Positions 43,506 to 62,247 of a stretch of DNA of 64,000 nt are shown here, one piece after another. The stretch is from positions 96,001-160,000 of IMG/VR virus record IMGVR_UViG_3300031088_000737; one strand, given 5' to 3'. The DNA comes from a virus. The translations under genes and the position numbers were made by a program. Positions within the stretch are counted from its first letter, which is position 1; the number at the start of each line of letters is the position of its first letter. The notes beneath the pieces are model-generated. The model saw nothing but the letters and a program-made list of their open reading frames with translations, was not told the DNA's origin and did no database searches.

Positions 43506-44237
43506 ATGTTAAAACGCATATTAATTACAAGTTTATTTTTACTTTCAACCACTTCATTTGCTCAAGACAATAGACATCAAAGAATTACATCTCAGGAAGA
43601 ATTAGATCGAGAGATAGTGTATTTAATGAAAAAATTTGACTATGAAAAGCCTGATACTTTAATTCGATTAGTTGATTATGTTAACCGCAACTCAGAGGTG
43701 AGAGGTTATGTGATCAATAAATTTTCAATGAGTGCTACTAAAAATGATAAGAAAGGTAAAAACATTAAGTTTATTGTTGATTATATCAGTCAAAATATTG
43801 TTGAATTAGACACCTCTAATATCCCTAAAAATGGTGAATGGCAAGGACAATCAGGACACTCGCTGTTCTTTATTAATGGGAATACCCATTCTTATTCCAC
43901 AGAAGAGATGAGACAAGCAGCTCCCTATGGTATTCCATTTGAATATGGATATCCTAACTTTACCAGTTTTAGAGTGGGAGACTTAATTCCAATTCAAAAT
44001 CCAACCGCCTCCTATCCACATGATTATGAGAAAGTTGTCAATCAAATCATTATGGAAAAGAAACCTATCAATGGCATTGTTTTCAATAATGCTGCTGAGT
44101 TTAAAGAATATCTGCAAACGAACCTTATTAACTTGCATTATGCTCATGATGAAAATGCGTTTGAATTTTTACCCAATACTGTTGTGTCAGTCATCAACTA
44201 TGAATTACCACACATATCAAAAAGAAAGCCTCATTAA
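43506..44237 (+). CDS. Secreted hypothetical protein
   Basis: Signal peptide MLKRIL...SFA. Confidence 0.65.
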   Translation: MLKRILITSLFLLSTTSFAQDNRHQRITSQEELDREIVYLMKKFDYEKPDTLIRLVDYVNRNSEVRGYVINKFSMSATKNDKKGKNIKFIVDYISQNIVELDTSNIPKNGEWQGQSGHSLFFINGNTHSYSTEEMRQAAPYGIPFEYGYPNFTSFRVGDLIPIQNPTASYPHDYEKVVNQIIMEKKPINGIVFNNAAEFKEYLQTNLINLHYAHDENAFEFLPNTVVSVINYELPHISKRKPH

Positions 44238-44668
44238 GAGGCTTTTCTTTCATCTACATACTGGTTAAGCAAGAACTCAAATTCGGCTGGTGATAAGCCA
44301 AAGAAGTATTTTACTTTTTCATTGACCGAATTTACTACATAATTACTCTTTGAGATGATTCTTACAGCCCCTTGACCATATTCAATTAAAATACCTGCAT
44401 TGATATTAGCAACCTTTTCAATGTTGTATTTAAATACTGGATGGTAATCAAAAGGATTAACCCCATCTTTGTAGCGGTTATCTCTAATGGTGACATCGAC
44501 ATGTTTACCTTTAATAATCGCATAGAACATAAAGATTTCTAAACTGCAGTTGTGTTTGTTTTCTTGGTACCCTTCTCGAAAGGTGACCACTGCTTTTTTT
44601 ATTAAATCTCTTTTATTCATTTCAGTTTCAGTGACTTCGTTAGTTTTGTTTTGTTCAATAGCGTTCAT
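44234..44668 (-). CDS. Hypothetical protein, last gene of the PTH2/HD operon
   Basis: SD AGGAG, tightly coupled to the HD gene. Confidence 0.7.
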   Translation of the reverse strand: MNAIEQNKTNEVTETEMNKRDLIKKAVVTFREGYQENKHNCSLEIFMFYAIIKGKHVDVTIRDNRYKDGVNPFDYHPVFKYNIEKVANINAGILIEYGQGAVRIISKSNYVVNSVNEKVKYFFGLSPAEFEFLLNQYVDERKAS

Positions 44669-44670
44669 GA

Positions 44671-45270
44671 TTATTCTCCTAATAGTTTATCATTAAATTT
44701 TTTGCCGATTTTGTTAATTTTTTTCCATTTGATTTTAAAGCTCGTTGATTCAATACCGCCAAACATGGAAGCATTACTATGAATCTCACAGAAGCCAGTA
44801 ATCAAAAGGGTTGCAGCGAATGGTAGTGCATAGAACTTTTCAAAATCATCCATTTTAAGCAAATGAATGTCCATATCATGCTCCATCAATTGAGCTTGAA
44901 GTTCAGTGCCACCGATTTTACGCCAGATTAGACCAGATGCTTGTGCATGGTCAGGGAAGTGACGGTTACCATTTTCATCAATAGTCAAACAGAAGGGTTT
45001 ACCACAGTCGTGATAAATCTGATAAGTGTTGATGTCTTTTTCGTCTACTAAGTTATTCCAAATAGATTTGTTATAAATCCAATCAGGAAGTCTCCATTCG
45101 AGTGTTAATGGTTTTCCATCAATAATGTGATCTTTCAAATCTTGAAAGTATTTATTGACTGATAATCCATGTTGAAGAACATTCATGCCTTGTGTTTGTT
45201 CACAGGCTTTCATCTCTTTAACAAGATCTTTGAAGCTAAGGTTTTTAATGTTATCAATCTACATAGTCAT
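44671..45270 (-). CDS. HD-domain phosphohydrolase-like protein with in-frame TAG at codon 4
   Basis: QHG, YHDCGKP, DHA and HDMDIH motifs. SD AGGAGA sits 6 nt before the ATG at 45270; the gene then reads ATG ACT ATG TAG ATT GAT AAC and is open into the annotated ATG at 45213. Confidence 0.75.
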
Positions 45271-45298
45271 GGTCGTTCTCCTAATAAGTAATGTTGTG

Positions 45299-45661
45299 TT
45301 ATTTTGAAGCTTTAAATGTTTCTATTTGGTTCTTTATTGCGTGCTCTAATTGTACCAAATCATCTACTGTAAAGTCAACACCTATTTTATATTTTAATGC
45401 TTTTAAATCCCAAGATTCTAAGTTATTAAGTTCTAGTTGTTTTCTGGATTTTTCAACAGCACTTAACCAGTCGAGAGCAATAGAAACAGCTTCCGATTTA
45501 TCTGTTGCACATTTAGTAAAGTCTTTTGTTTCTCTTAATAAGGCATATAATACATAATCCTTCAAGAATAATACTTTGACTTTGTGTCCATTATCATCAC
45601 GATAAGGGCGTTCTGTTTTTAAAAAAGTTTTCATGGTGTTTATCATTGCTAATCTACTCAT
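45299..45661 (-). CDS. Hypothetical protein in the PTH2/HD operon
   Basis: ATGA overlap with the upstream gene. Confidence 0.7.
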   Translation of the reverse strand: MSRLAMINTMKTFLKTERPYRDDNGHKVKVLFLKDYVLYALLRETKDFTKCATDKSEAVSIALDWLSAVEKSRKQLELNNLESWDLKALKYKIGVDFTVDDLVQLEHAIKNQIETFKASK

Positions 45662-46425
45662 TTTATTTCTCCTTTGAAAAAATGATTTATATCTTTATAT
45701 TGGTTAAAGTTCTCTTTACTGACTTCTGTTATGTCATATTCAGGGGCTAAAAAAAACATTAATCCTTCTGGTGTAAATTCAATTTCGTGATGTGGTTGAT
45801 GATCCATTAAAATAACCTCCAAAAAACCTTCATGTGTTAAAAATACGAGAATTCTTTCTGGCAGCACATCCAATGTGTCTATAAAATGAACAAAGGAATG
45901 TAAAGCTTCTGTATTCATCTCTAATTCATCGTTATGTTCTCCCCAACCGTAATCATAGGCAATCAATTCAACTAAATTTTTAGCAGTATCCTGTTCTAAT
46001 TTATACAATAATCCAGAAACCATCTCTAATTTTGTTTTGTAGTTAGCAAAACAGTTTTCTGGATCGGTATATTTAAAATGTTTAAACACTGATCGAGGGA
46101 GTGCAATACCATCGTCATAACCTGTCATGTAGAGATAAGTTGCTTCTGGTTCAAAACAAACGTCTACTAACTGATTGTTTAATATCCAGTTGATACTCAT
46201 CATCCCTTCATGGTTGAAGAAGAACCCGATATCATTGGGGATATTGTCATTGATCTTATTAAGAAAATACAACATCTCTCTGCATGATGCTTCATTCATA
46301 GGTTCAGCATCACGACCATCCCAGTTGGCTTTAACTTCAGCCAACTCGATTAATCGTTGAATAGATGAATCACTTAGTTTGATTGTGTGTTCATTGATTA
46401 GGGTTAATATTAATTCTTTATCCAT
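45658..46425 (-). CDS. Hypothetical protein with two internally repeated domains
   Basis: L.EL....(AN/YG)W(D/G)......M repeated twice; SD AAGGGGG. Confidence 0.7.
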   Translation of the reverse strand: MDKELILTLINEHTIKLSDSSIQRLIELAEVKANWDGRDAEPMNEASCREMLYFLNKINDNIPNDIGFFFNHEGMMSINWILNNQLVDVCFEPEATYLYMTGYDDGIALPRSVFKHFKYTDPENCFANYKTKLEMVSGLLYKLEQDTAKNLVELIAYDYGWGEHNDELEMNTEALHSFVHFIDTLDVLPERILVFLTHEGFLEVILMDHQPHHEIEFTPEGLMFFLAPEYDITEVSKENFNQYKDINHFFKGEIK

Positions 46426-46434
46426 AAGTCCCCC

Positions 46435-46896
46435 TTATACACACTGAAATTTCTTGGTGATTTGTTTCACTTCTTCTTTGGTGCAAGGCCCAATACCGAG
46501 AGCGGTAATGATAGGAGAACCATCAAAGTGTGGTGGCAAAATATGACCTTGATCGACAATAATTGAACATGGCAATCCCGCAGCAATAGCTTGGTTGTAT
46601 GCTTTAATTAAGTGATCTTCATTTTTGGCTTTTAACGTAACCTTAGATCCGCCTGATTGACGATTTCTATAGAGCTTAACGTTTTCTGGGTGCGATTCTT
46701 GTGCGTTTGTTAATGCATCCGTATAAGCGTGACCAGCTTGAGCTGCAAGCTTACCCGTTGGCATGTTTAAATCGCCGCGAATAATTGAATAGATGTAGTA
46801 ATGTGAGTCTTTGTCCGAAGGAACAAATTGAGTGTATTGGCTAAGAATAGCCTCTTTGGTGATGAAGTCGAATTCGTTATTATCAATCTACAACAT
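46435..46896 (-). CDS. pth2: Peptidyl-tRNA hydrolase PTH2-type with in-frame TAG at codon 3
   Basis: IYSIIRGDLNMPTGKLAAQAGHA, KVTLKA, IVDQGH and TALGIGP motifs. SD AAGGAGA sits 7 nt before the ATG at 46896; the gene then reads ATG TTG TAG ATT GAT AAT and is open to the end. Confidence 0.85.
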
Positions 46897-47120
46897 GATG
46901 TAATCTCCTTTGTTTGATTTACAGTTATAATTCTACGCTCTATTTTTTTAGAAGTCAACATTTTTTTTTAACATTACTAAAATACTTTAAAATATTATCT
47001 GTTAAAAAATCTATAACATTTTAAAAATAATAGATAAAAGCATTGAAAAGAAAGTTTCAATCTGCTATCATTTCACTCATCTGTTTTTGGTTAAACAGAC
47101 ATTGATAGGGAGTTTGTTTA

Positions 47121-60101: not shown

Positions 60102-60179
60102 GGGGGCACATGTTCCAAGGGATGGCGAGTTTGCCTTGCACGCAGACTGCGAAGAGTTCGATTCTCTTTGTCTCCACCA
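60102..60179 (+). tRNA. tRNA-Ala(TGC)
   Basis: G3:U70, loop CT-TGC-AC, TTCGA T-loop and encoded CCA. Confidence 0.85.
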
Positions 60180-60220
60180 AATTTGTTGACTTGATGTGTT
60201 ATAGAACAAACTTAAAATAT

Positions 60221-60295
60221 GGGCTGTTAGTTTAACTGGGAAAATACCTGCCTTGCACGCAGATGTTCAGAGTTCGATTCTCTGACGGTCCACCA
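60221..60295 (+). tRNA. tRNA-Ala(TGC)
   Basis: GGGCTGT/ACGGTCC acceptor with G3:U70; CCA. Confidence 0.88.
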
Positions 60296-60319
60296 GATTA
60301 GTTGTAGAAAGAGAATTAT

Positions 60320-60396
60320 GTCTGCGTAGCTCAGTTGGATAGAGCATCCGCCTTCTAAGCGGATGGTCGTTGGTTCGAATCCAACCGTAGACACCA
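60320..60396 (+). tRNA. tRNA-Arg(TCT)
   Basis: TCCGC-CTTCTAA-GCGGA anticodon arm; CCA. Confidence 0.92.
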
Positions 60397-60416
60397 AATT
60401 AGATGTAACCAGATAT

Positions 60417-60491
60417 GGGCTGATAGTTTAACTGGGAAAACACTTGCCTTGCACGCAGGAGTTCAGAGTTCGATTCTCTGTCGGTCCACCA
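60417..60491 (+). tRNA. tRNA-Ala(TGC)
   Basis: Near copy of 60221-60295; G3:U70; CCA. Confidence 0.88.
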
Positions 60492-60508
60492 GATTTAAGT
60501 AATACAAT

Positions 60509-60583
60509 GGGGCTTTTAGTTTAACTGGCAAAACCTTGGGATTTCTCCTAAAGAATATGGTTCGAGTCCATATAGCTCCACCA
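60509..60583 (+). ncRNA. tRNA-Ala-like RNA with aberrant 6-nt anticodon loop
   Basis: GGGGCT/AGCTCC-ACCA acceptor (G3:U70), normal D and T arms; the arm reads TTGGG-ATTTCT-CCTAA. Confidence 0.7.
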
Positions 60584-60598
60584 GTTTATAAGTTTCAT

Positions 60599-60675
60599 GG
60601 GCCATTAGTTCAGTTGGTAGAACGCCTGCTTTGCACGCAGGATGTCATGAGTTCAAATCTCATATGTGTCCACCA
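60599..60675 (+). tRNA. tRNA-Ala(TGC) with one bulged base in the acceptor stem
   Basis: CCTGC-TTTGCAC-GCAGG; the 3' acceptor strand ATGTGTCC is 8 nt long. Confidence 0.8.
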
Positions 60676-60692
60676 GTTTTAAAATTTTATAC

Positions 60693-60766
60693 GGGGTTTT
60701 AGTTTAACTATCGAAAAACAACAAGGAAACTTGTAAATGAAAGGTCGAAACTTTCAGACTCCACCA
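60693..60766 (+). ncRNA. tRNA-Ala-like RNA with GAAA tetraloop in place of the anticodon loop
   Basis: GGGGTTT/AGACTCC-ACCA (G3:U70) and ACAAG-GAAA-CTTGT. The D-loop lacks GG and the T-loop is GTCGAAA. Confidence 0.72.
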
Positions 60767-60781
60767 AATAATGTTTTTTAT

Positions 60782-60857
60782 ATTCTCATAGCTCAACTGG
60801 AAGAGCAATGACCTTCTAAGTCATCGGTTGTAGGTTCGAGTCCTACTGGGAATGCCA
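60782..60857 (+). tRNA. tRNA-Arg(TCT)
   Basis: ATGAC-CTTCTAA-GTCAT; ends GCCA. Confidence 0.9.
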
Positions 60858-60863
60858 AATTAG

Positions 60864-61040
60864 TTAGTTGATGTTTCAACTGATTTAAACGCTACATGTT
60901 GCCTGATTAGCAACTAGTATACTGGTCAAGTATGATTGAAGCAGCTTAATCACTGCAGTCTGACCTCTGATAAGTATATCCGGTAGGTATTTACCGTCAC
61001 TTCGAAGCGTGGAGATATTTATTATCGTTGAAGCGTTAGC
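60864..61040 (+). ncRNA. Unassigned multi-stem structured RNA candidate within the tRNA operon
   Basis: Several nested inverted repeats, closed by AACGCT/AGCGTT; no credible ORF. Confidence 0.45.
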
Positions 61041-61054
61041 GGAAATACTATTAT

Positions 61055-61129
61055 GGGCTGTTAGTTTAGCTGGGAAAATACCTGCCTTGCACGCAGGAGT
61101 GCTGGGTTCGAGTCCCTGACGGTCCACCA
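61055..61129 (+). tRNA. tRNA-Ala(TGC)
   Basis: G3:U70; CCTGC-CTTGCAC-GCAGG; one T-stem mismatch; CCA. Confidence 0.85.
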
Positions 61130-61141
61130 GTTTTGTTGTTT

Positions 61142-61218
61142 GTCCGTGTAGCTCAGTTGGATAGAGCGTCTGCCTCCTAAGCGGAAGGTCGTAGGTTCAA
61201 ATCCTATCACGGACGCCA
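61142..61218 (+). tRNA. tRNA-Arg(CCT)
   Basis: TCTGC-CTCCTAA-GCGGA; ends GCCA. Confidence 0.9.
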
Positions 61219-61248
61219 GTTTTGATATTTTATTTAGAGGATTAATCA

Positions 61249-61782
61249 ATGGTAATTGCTTATGTGGCACCTTTGTTAAAAGATGATTATATTAACGCAA
61301 CCGCTGATAATAAAACTATTAAAGAAAGTCATGATATTCGTGAAAAAATTGTAGCTCGCTCTCTTTATGTATTTGATAAAATTGCTGAGTTGTTGAATTT
61401 AAAATATAATTGGGTTGCTTTTGATACTATTGATTTAGAAAAATATCAAGGTGCCGATAACGGAGAATATGATTATCAGCGTTATTTTGAAACGTTTAAA
61501 TTTTATAGTGATATTGACGAATTAGAATATAAAAATAAAATTATTGATGTTTATTGTAATCAATTTCCATCAAGTTTTATTTATGAAGAATTTGAAGATG
61601 AAGTTCTTGGAACGGCTGAATCAATTAAGCTAGGTATTGATTTAAAAAAAGAAAGAGCAGATAGAAAACGAAAACATGATAAGGATAAAGAAAAAGAACG
61701 CAATAAGATTAGACCAGAAGTAATAGCTTCTATTAAATCTAAATTGAGTGAATTAGAATTATCTTTTGTTGATTTTAAATGA
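61249..61782 (+). CDS. Hypothetical protein embedded in the tRNA cluster
   Basis: SD GAGG; acidic body with a basic coiled tail. Confidence 0.7.
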   Translation: MVIAYVAPLLKDDYINATADNKTIKESHDIREKIVARSLYVFDKIAELLNLKYNWVAFDTIDLEKYQGADNGEYDYQRYFETFKFYSDIDELEYKNKIIDVYCNQFPSSFIYEEFEDEVLGTAESIKLGIDLKKERADRKRKHDKDKEKERNKIRPEVIASIKSKLSELELSFVDFK

Positions 61783-61863
61783 TTTAACAAAGAATAAGGG
61801 AGTTTTACTGTAAAGGTGAAACTGGATTGGAGCCGTGGTTTCCGGGGGGCATTCATTCACTAT

Positions 61864-61940
61864 GGGATTTTAGCTCAGTTGGTTAGAGCATCCGACTCAT
61901 AATCGGCAGGTCGTAAGTTCAAGTCTTACAAGTCCCACCA
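61864..61940 (+). tRNA. tRNA with CAT anticodon, probably Ile2 (lysidine)
   Basis: CCGA-CTCATAA-TCGG arm with C29:G41, resembling ileX-type tRNAs. Met is not excluded. Confidence 0.8.
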
Positions 61941-61956
61941 AATTAGATGTGTATAT

Positions 61957-62031
61957 GGTTCTGTAGCATAACGGTAAATGCACCCCGCTCATAACGGGAT
62001 GATTAAGGTTCGATTCCTTGCAGAACCACCA
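61957..62031 (+). tRNA. tRNA with CAT anticodon (elongator Met or Ile2)
   Basis: CCCG-CTCATAA-CGGG; G1:C72 is paired, so it is not initiator-like; CCA. Confidence 0.8.
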
Positions 62032-62034
62032 GAT

Positions 62035-62163
62035 AGTAGAAAGGTAGCTTAACGGGAGAGCAGCCGGGATGACCCGGTAACTTTAAATCTCATGTCAGAT
62101 AAATTCTCGTAATTTATAGGCCATGTGGATAGTGGTAATGGTTCGAATCCATTGCTTTCTACT
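62035..62163 (+). ncRNA. tRNA-like RNA with no anticodon loop and a 58-nt variable arm
   Basis: AGTAGAAAG/CTTTCTACT closing stem, D arm GCTT..GAGC, GCCGGG-ATGA-CCCGGT and T arm AATGG-TTCGAAT-CCATT. No encoded CCA. Confidence 0.62.
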
Positions 62164-62171
62164 TGCATTTT

Positions 62172-62247
62172 GGGGTTGTAGTTCAGTTGGTAGAACGCTT
62201 GTATGGCATACAAGAGGTCGTGGGTTCGAATCCCATCTTCTCCACCA
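62172..62247 (+). tRNA. tRNA-Ala(GGC) with two acceptor-stem mismatches
   Basis: CTTGT-ATGGCAT-ACAAG; G3:U70; U5/U68 and U6/U67 are unpaired; CCA. Confidence 0.78.

Follow-up and report, generated by a model that had tools for sequence, protein, structure and literature searches.

How can two genes of one operon be expressed when each opens with a well-placed start and runs into an amber stop codon (TAG) at codon 3 or 4? The question is raised by a five-gene operon on the minus strand of the virus record IMGVR_UViG_3300031088_000737, whose first gene codes for a presumed peptidyl-tRNA hydrolase of the PTH2 type and whose fourth for a predicted HD-fold phosphohydrolase-like protein. Coordinates are positions in the window, the 64,000-nucleotide (nt) stretch of that record under analysis; the full record comprises 181 kb at 31% GC and is 58% complete according to CheckV. 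We propose that the two UAG codons are probably programmed read-through sites, whose likeliest decoder is a suppressor tRNA encoded by the element itself and acting on both genes.

Two gated genes with coding sequence behind the stop

Both start sites (hereafter gates) lie on the minus strand where the original prediction had placed them. The PTH2 gate, ATG TTG TAG (46888..46896; ATG 46896-46894, TAG 46890-46888), follows the Shine-Dalgarno (SD) sequence AAGGAG (46905..46910) by 8 nt, a spacing conserved in relatives, and its amber codon is codon 3. The coding frame behind it (46438..46887, 150 codons) opens at ATT 46887 and ends at a stop at 46437-46435; its first canonical start, the annotated ATG at 46764, is residue 42 of this frame, 41 codons downstream. 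The HD gate, ATG ACT ATG TAG (45259..45270; ATG 45270-45268, TAG 45261-45259), has its amber codon as codon 4 and lies 6 nt behind the SD sequence AGGAGA (45277..45282). The 195-codon frame of the HD-fold phosphohydrolase-like protein (44674..45258) then opens at ATT 45258 and stops at 44673-44671, with its first canonical start, the annotated ATG at 45213 (residue 16), 15 codons downstream. That this internal ATG lacks a well-spaced SD had been claimed earlier and is correct: AAAGAG directly precedes it.

The frame behind the PTH2 gate scored 87.9 bits with Pfam family PF01981, whose gathering cut-off is 23; residues 32-148 align with profile positions 3-113 of 115. The domain begins 10 residues ahead of the annotated Met, and a start at 46764 would delete its first strand; phrog_1866 aligns from residue 27. 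Over the 41-codon extension, differences from three relatives by first, second and third codon position were 1/0/5, 13/3/18 and 10/7/16, a third-position bias. The +1 frame across the gate (46767-46961, minus) is also open, for 64 codons, and ends just before ATG 46764; the third-position statistics favor the 0 frame, and we treat the open +1 frame as probably due to chance. The NCBIfam equivalog cut-offs for archaeal Pth2 (NF003314 / TIGR00283) were missed (82 bits against 126, and 71.3 against 82), and the product belongs to a diverged PTH2 subfamily, probably with peptidyl-tRNA hydrolase activity.

Assignment of the fourth gene to the HD phosphohydrolases appears to hold at the level of fold and motif. 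The H...HD...H...D metal-binding pattern (H30, H83-D84, H100, H104, D128, H132) is invariant in 30 homologues, and the AlphaFold2 model has a mean predicted local distance difference test score of 96.4. The top Foldseek matches of this model were chains of class II tRNA nucleotidyltransferases (3wfo/3wfr; probability 1.0, TMq 0.58 to 0.61, E only 2.5e-3), followed by PhnZ, YfbR, PgpH and OxsA at E 0.05 to 1. A profile search of Protein Data Bank (PDB) sequences returned the same nucleotidyltransferase chains (3wfo-3wfs) at E 0.012, and no curated family matched the protein in Pfam at E ≤ 0.01 or in NCBIfam at E ≤ 1. The HD domain of the Escherichia coli CCA enzyme removes 2',3'-cyclic and 3'-phosphates. 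Together, the PTH2 and HD proteins might plausibly clear tRNA 3' ends of acyl or peptidyl groups and of phosphates.

The position of the annotated starts bears on an alternative in which ribosomes terminate at UAG and re-initiate at the adjoining AUU, or initiate at the internal ATGs, so that the mini-open reading frame (mini-ORF) is a coupling device only. ATT does follow TAG directly in both window gates, and AUU is a rare natural start codon. However, starting at 46764 would cost PTH2 10 residues of its Pfam domain along with 41 conserved codons, while starting at 45213, with no spaced SD, would remove half of a confidently modeled helix (residues 9-18) that spans the annotated Met16. The phrog_14850 match to the HD protein begins at residue 5, and its more distant homologues start 8 to 17 residues upstream of Met16. 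Moreover, coupling does not require the stop to be in frame, and it always is. Together with the variable codons that follow the stop in relatives (see below), this makes re-initiation or internal initiation very unlikely.

The two gates also share an exact context, as the original prediction had noted. The 13-mer TGTAGATTGATAA matches the window perfectly at two sites and no more, one in the HD gate cassette (45251..45263, minus) and one in the PTH2 gate cassette (46880..46892, minus), and a 14-mer search of the whole record at 0 to 1 mismatch recovered the same two sites and no others. It forms part of a cassette, from the ATG to +18, that evolves in concert in both genes. When every long ORF in the 181 kb was scanned, only those of PTH2 and the HD gene combined a strong SD-ATG, a stop 2 to 3 codons later and a long in-frame ORF with a far-downstream first start. 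The calculated probability that two specified 13-nt sites match by chance is ~1e-7 at the base composition of the record. A premature stop in each gene under the standard code could also mark two decaying genes, pseudogenes created by nonsense mutations. Besides the improbability of the shared 13-mer, that explanation must contend with gates kept at 69 to 99% identity in many independent assemblies, with intact ORFs under coding constraint, and with gates in cultured phages and megaplasmids; we find it scarcely credible. A protein-binding or small-RNA site, another option raised for the motif, is neither needed nor found. Antisense partners of the 13-mer elsewhere in the record were limited to 9- to 11-mers, at chance level. 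The cassette pattern ATGTTRTARATTGATAA gave 97 matches in viral contigs, none leading into a long ORF, and all are attributed to chance.

Genome-wide reassignment of TAG does not account for the gates. Under code 11, ORFs of at least 100 amino acids (aa) cover 95% of the record, and no excess of internal TAG codons was found across the 181 kb. Code-15-like phages are recognized by many interrupted genes and low code-11 coding density; here coverage is 95% and two genes are gated. The 214 ORFs of at least 100 aa end in TAA (161), TGA (35) or TAG (18), and, contrary to what had been supposed, TAG is not an especially rare stop here.

Stop codons that change together in close relatives

Gates on both genes are maintained in the loci L009-L015 and L106-L117 (the latter from a metagenome scan) at 69 to 99% PTH2 identity. 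The PTH2 gate appears as ATG TTG/TTA TAG in L008-L015, L106-L109, L111 and L113, and with TAA in L110 and L114-117; the HD gate has TAG in L009-L014, L106-L109, L111 and L113, and TAA in L110 and L114/116. Throughout L009-L015, PTH2 begins ATG TTG TAG and the HD gene ATG xxx ATG TAG, also in members whose codons behind the stop are different (ACT GTT...). In a 97%-identical contig, the gene caller had used code 15 and produced a 153-aa protein starting MLQIDN, in which Q is the TAG read as Gln. Searching viral contigs for exact peptides of the single PTH2 protein gave no match; an alignment-based search did find relatives. The persistence of the motif in homologous operons, in about 10 diverged relatives and with coding sequence behind the stop, supports the earlier view of the gates as a programmed, conserved cis-feature as opposed to two accidents.

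The stop type is identical in both genes of every two-gene genome: eight are TAG/TAG, two are TAA/TAA (L110; L114-117), and none of the ten is discordant, an outcome expected by chance about once in 45. The block from the ATG to about +18 is likewise near-identical between the two genes within a genome and different between genomes. Since both protein trees place the two TAA lineages in separate clades (HD tree split 100/99), the switch between TAG and TAA must have happened at least twice, each time in both genes. Such paired switching is what a shared trans-acting decoder would predict. In the more distant L016-L019, the HD gene directly follows PTH2 and has an ordinary ATG start, which makes the HD gate a derived copy of the one on PTH2; the copy arose with the insertion of two genes between the pair.

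The sequence after the stop is less constant than the stop itself. In relatives, the next codon is ACT, GTT, AAA, AAC, GTA, GAC, GAA or ATC, which argues against re-initiation at TAG-AUU, one of the mechanisms first suggested. The base following every in-frame gate stop is A or G, reportedly the context that Bossi described as favoring amber suppression.

Matching tRNAs in distant relatives and the search for a decoder

In other clades, the gates co-vary with tRNAs; the window clade displays the cis side only, as the two joint changes from TAG to TAA. PTH2 of this subfamily is preceded by an SD-ATG, 1 to 8 codons and an in-frame TAG in 34 viral loci, down to about 40% identity and also in GC-rich genomes, and early-stop starts of the gate form across those loci comprise 24 with TAG versus 7 others. 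A tRNA(CUA) lies 70 nt to 3.4 kb from the TAG-gated PTH2 in L016-L019, L022, L023, L025-L029, L126 and L169; among about 20 loci with an ungated PTH2 (L020-L021, L030-L049), only L044 has one nearby. Sinorhizobium phage Phosso carries the gate ATG AAG TAT TAG together with a pair of tRNA(CUA), of which one is 4.6 kb upstream. In Agrobacterium phage Atu_ph07, the PTH2 gate is instead ATG, five codons and TGA (codon 7), and the phage encodes a tRNA(UCA) and no CUA tRNA. A complete 335.5-kb genome with the standard code (G003) contains a single TAG gate, on PTH2, and a single tRNA(CUA), 416 nt upstream. The same genome (L193) also encodes a tRNA(UCA), at record position 145422, for which no convincing TGA-gated target was found. 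Finally, the bin G006 combines an in-frame TAG gate that has no adjacent tRNA with arrays of tRNAs for single amino acids, and two tRNA(CUA) in arrays on other contigs. This arrangement makes a distant suppressor plausible, short of proof, in the element studied here.

A four-base form of the gate extends the match between gate and tRNA. In at least 35 loci, the mini-ORF ends at its stop and the PTH2 frame is +1; several lie on megaplasmids from cultured bacteria (pMPPla107, P. silesiensis pPL1, R. leguminosarum pRlX5 and those of Vibrio, Bosea and Psychromonas). A non-canonical type-I tRNA lies 25 to 270 nt upstream; its anticodon is complementary to the +1 codon, and the base that opens the 0-frame codon pairs with nucleotide 37 of the tRNA. 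The pairs observed are GCU+A37 with UAGC (about 10 loci, including pMPPla107), GUU+A37 with UAAC, GUC+A37 with UGAC, GGU+G37 with CACC, AAU+G37 with CAUU and CGC+U37A38 with UAGCG; pairing of AUU+A37 with UAAC would need inosine at position 34, and L167 is an exception to the rule. On the cultured megaplasmids (L401, which is pMPPla107 614613-625056, and L402, L403 and L400), PTH2 can be entered only through a +1 shift at UAGC, behind a mini-ORF of 2 to 6 codons, and in pMPPla107 and pPL1 a type-I tRNA(GCU) stands just upstream of PTH2. On the Vibrio parahaemolyticus megaplasmid (L400), two tandem repeats ending GAAGAGGGGTTCGACACCCCTGC..CACCA lie about 100 to 330 nt upstream of the PTH2 mini-ORF; they resemble the 3' halves of tRNAs and were not called as tRNAs by aragorn.

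Directly 3' of the shift site in the four-base loci stands a conserved element, CTCTTGCGNACGG-N3-9-GACCGCA, followed by a variable hairpin (L112-L181, L301, L307). Loci often have two copies, one ahead of PTH2 and the other ahead of the HD gene (L123:7778-7846 and L123:9407-9475 are an example). Because GACCGCA is read in different frames in different loci, the element must be an RNA or DNA signal and not a peptide. It matched no Rfam family, and its consensus fold yielded three invariant pairs only, with no fold defined.

Taken together, the in-frame gates, the coding frames behind them, the co-varying stops and the matching anticodons in relatives make read-through the best fit among the options originally listed. 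We propose that ribosomes would initiate at the well-placed SD-ATG, read two or three codons and enter the PTH2 or HD frame only if the amber suppressor tRNA of the element decodes UAG; otherwise, release factor 1 would terminate a peptide of two or three residues. A single trans-acting tRNA could in this way set the post-transcriptional output of both enzymes that process tRNA 3' ends. The suppressor would be charged and would reside in the unsampled part of this element, and we favor limiting or timing of two enzymes that act on tRNA ends as its purpose, perhaps with feedback through drop-off of very short peptidyl-tRNA.

Several observations weigh against this proposal, chief among them that no decoder was seen. 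Neither aragorn, nor Infernal with RF00005, nor BLAST with the two CUA tRNAs of G006 found a tRNA with a CUA or UUA anticodon in the 181 kb, and a hairpin scan of the same sequence found no anticodon-arm-like hairpin suited to an amber or ochre tRNA. Up to 8 kb from the operon, too, neither the window nor any close relative has a CUA or UUA tRNA, leaving the decoder unseen for the whole clade. The suppressor that the original prediction took for granted is thus missing from the 181 kb, an absence that does not settle the matter in a record only about 58% complete. An efficient suppressor would also extend the proteins of the 18 ordinary ORFs that end in TAG, and the G006 bin, cited above in favor of a distant suppressor, may mix more than one element.

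The record is otherwise rich in tRNAs, with 25 in two arrays (Leu and Gln in one; Ala, Arg and Met in the other) plus two tRNA-like RNAs. The array in the window (60104-62247) has Ala(UGC) in five copies, Arg(UCU) and Met in two copies each, Arg(CCU), Ala(GGC) and an odd-loop tRNA; the second (record 77614-79500, outside the window) consists of eleven Leu tRNAs, a single Gln(UUG) and a tRNA whose anticodon loop has 8 nt. Arrays similarly confined to a few amino acids, such as ten Glu and seven Asp, occur in related contigs and in the G006 bin. Neither odd-loop tRNA has a CUA anticodon: the first (window 60509-60583) is Ala-like (G3:U70) with the 6-nt loop AUUUCU, and the second (record 79232-79317) is Leu-like with the 8-nt loop UUCGCUUA. 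In light of the four-base decoding in relatives, these two may serve to read non-triplet sites in other parts of the element. One tRNA-like RNA (window 62038-62161; Infernal 31.9 bits) has normal acceptor, D and T arms, and its anticodon arm is replaced by a 6-bp hairpin with a tetraloop and an insert of about 55 nt; it follows Met-Met in the array, the slot that a tRNA(CUA) occupies in one G006 array. A second anticodon-less tRNA-like match lies at record 78846-78915. Both were considered as hidden suppressors and rejected, having no usable anticodon.

Other routes past the window gates were also set aside. Hopping or +1 frameshifting was rejected, as each ORF shares the frame of its ATG and a suitable landing codon is lacking. 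An initiator-type amber tRNA was likewise rejected on account of the CUA tRNAs of relatives, which lack the three G-C pairs of the anticodon stem, and of a distance from SD to stop that varies. Reading of UAGA as four bases by tRNA-Arg(UCU) with A37 would leave the PTH2 frame in this clade.

The lack of a visible suppressor invites a different explanation: near-cognate host tRNAs, or the record's own tRNA-Gln(UUG), may read the early UAG at low frequency, making the gate a fixed attenuator or a sensor of release factor 1 activity for two dose-sensitive enzymes. In its favor, a suppressor tRNA was seen neither in the 181 kb nor up to 8 kb from the operon in close relatives, termination on very short nascent chains is inefficient, and a low-scoring tRNA-Gln(UUG) is indeed encoded inside the Leu array. 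Leaky termination sits poorly, however, with two independent changes from TAG to TAA in both genes, which point to a specific decoder; TAA is normally the tightest stop. In relatives, the same gene family has a matching tRNA next door, and a weak SD would have sufficed for attenuation, yet both SDs are strong. On balance, we judge leaky termination unlikely.

The anatomy of the gates (a strong SD, two or three codons and a stop) suggests another circuit, in which the mini-ORFs act like the bar minigenes of phage lambda, the short peptidyl-tRNA drops off at the stop and the level of PTH2 acts back on that step, possibly alongside suppression. The mini-ORF is always 1 to 9 codons long in relatives, and the first gated gene would itself specify a peptidyl-tRNA hydrolase. 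By itself, however, drop-off leaves unexplained how the in-frame ORF is translated, why the stop is always in frame, why the HD gene is gated and why gate and anticodon match in relatives, and we regard such a circuit as improbable.

Suppression by an element-encoded tRNA, which we prefer, can be set in a wider frame, although here we rate the odds as somewhat below even. Giant plasmids and jumbo phages would make the PTH2 and HD pair only by means of a private tRNA reading a private codon, an "orthogonal decoding lock" in which lock and key co-evolve through UAG, UAA, UGA and four-base codons; in the clade studied here the key would have left its place beside the lock and would serve two locks.

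The operon, its element and known systems

The unit comprises PTH2, two unknown genes, the HD gene and a third unknown gene, and is bracketed by a promoter-like site and a terminator-like hairpin. Ahead of PTH2, a consensus scan predicted a sigma-70-like promoter, TTGACT-17 nt-TAGAAT (46930..46958, minus; 10/12 matches, predicted from consensus only). Between PTH2 and the HD gene lie an ungated gene of 255 aa (45658..46425, minus), found in the window clade only and with no match for its product in Pfam, NCBIfam or PHROG, and an ungated gene of 120 aa (45299..45661, minus). The last gene (144 aa; 44234..44668, minus) is also ungated and of unknown function, and an intrinsic-terminator-like hairpin was detected at the operon end (44225..44245, minus). 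A second promoter-like site, TTGACT-18 nt-TG-TACAAT, is present at 45349-45378 (minus), within the 3' end of the 120-aa gene and just upstream of the HD gate, and the HD gene may be separately transcribed from it as well. The original prediction of a co-regulated five-gene module is upheld in part: two genes of one tRNA-related operon are gated (genes 1 and 4), but the three unknown genes have ordinary starts.

The element was first taken for a phage, yet it more closely resembles a tRNA-rich megaplasmid and may be a megaplasmid fragment instead of a phage or provirus. Among plasmid records of cultured bacteria, its nearest homologues (L300-L307, L400-L403) are all on non-mobilizable replicons of 0.7 to 1.3 Mb, namely pMPPla107 and others from Pseudomonas, Vibrio, Bosea, Variovorax and Rhizobium. 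Both pMPPla107 and the close relative L009 have a Sir2 gene downstream, and the closest metagenome contigs to the record measure 0.6 and 1.5 Mb. A megablast of the operon against cultured phages gave no match.

For annotation, the consequence of such gates is that gene callers systematically truncate or miss the PTH2 and HD genes: PTH2 is called here at 109 aa, Phosso and pMPPla107 have internal starts (the RefSeq start of the megaplasmid PTH2 is an internal codon), and the gene is not annotated on the Vibrio plasmids. More broadly, the proposed design, post-transcriptional control of a small regulon by one tRNA, would be a simple natural one, relevant to translational control, to conflicts between mobile elements and hosts over tRNAs, and to genetic-code engineering. 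pMPPla107 offers a tractable system for the +1 gate.

A literature search found no published description of a tRNA-gated PTH2, in agreement with the statement that accompanied the original prediction, and comparison with known systems is therefore by parts. The gene for release factor 2, prfB, is autoregulated by a +1 frameshift at an early in-frame UGA, so that its own product reads the stop. The window genes are similarly translation-related genes with an early in-frame stop as gate; unlike prfB, they continue in frame, and the four-base relatives (pMPPla107 and others) are closer to it in form. Comparable too are the lambda bar minigenes and the pth(rap) phenotype; these minigenes are free-standing and are toxic when Pth is limiting. 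With them the gates share a strong SD, a 2- to 3-codon ORF, a stop and a functional link to peptidyl-tRNA hydrolase, but the mini-ORF of a gate is joined in frame to a conserved gene for an enzyme. The HD protein has its best fold match in the HD domain of class II tRNA nucleotidyltransferases (PDB 3wfo-3wfs); unlike them this putative phosphohydrolase is a stand-alone protein of 195 aa with no polymerase head.

Standard-code jumbo phages with one or two CUA or UCA tRNAs have been described before: XacN1 (PMC5852040), Atu_ph07 (PMC6102473) and RsoM2USA (PMC8504454). The authors of the XacN1 study sought a suppressor target only past the annotated ends of genes and found none (PMC5852040), and no target is named in the papers on the other two (PMC6102473, PMC8504454). 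In the present analysis, the TGA gate at PTH2 codon 7 of Atu_ph07 matched the UCA tRNA of that phage; the PTH2 of XacN1 belongs to an ungated subfamily. The orphan suppressor tRNAs of standard-code jumbo phages and megaplasmids thereby gain a concrete, testable target. If the lock reading is true, those of the jumbo phages would mainly serve to open the PTH2 gate, and natural quadruplet decoding would be widespread.

A close precedent is the work of Borges et al. (bioRxiv 10.1101/2021.08.26.457843) on phages whose suppressor tRNAs read TAG or TGA as sense, for which a regulatory role was proposed; peptidyl-tRNA hydrolase is not mentioned there. As in those recoding phages, the element studied here carries an in-frame stop in its own genes that would be meant for an element-supplied tRNA. 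Unlike them, it uses the standard code, confines the stop to two genes and always places it at codon 3 or 4, and its targets are predicted tRNA-end enzymes as opposed to late and lysis genes. What appears new is the in-frame double gate, the concerted switching of stops in both genes and a putative decoder that does not adjoin its lock. The double gate with its concerted switching is the clearest cis-side evidence we found for a shared trans-acting decoder.

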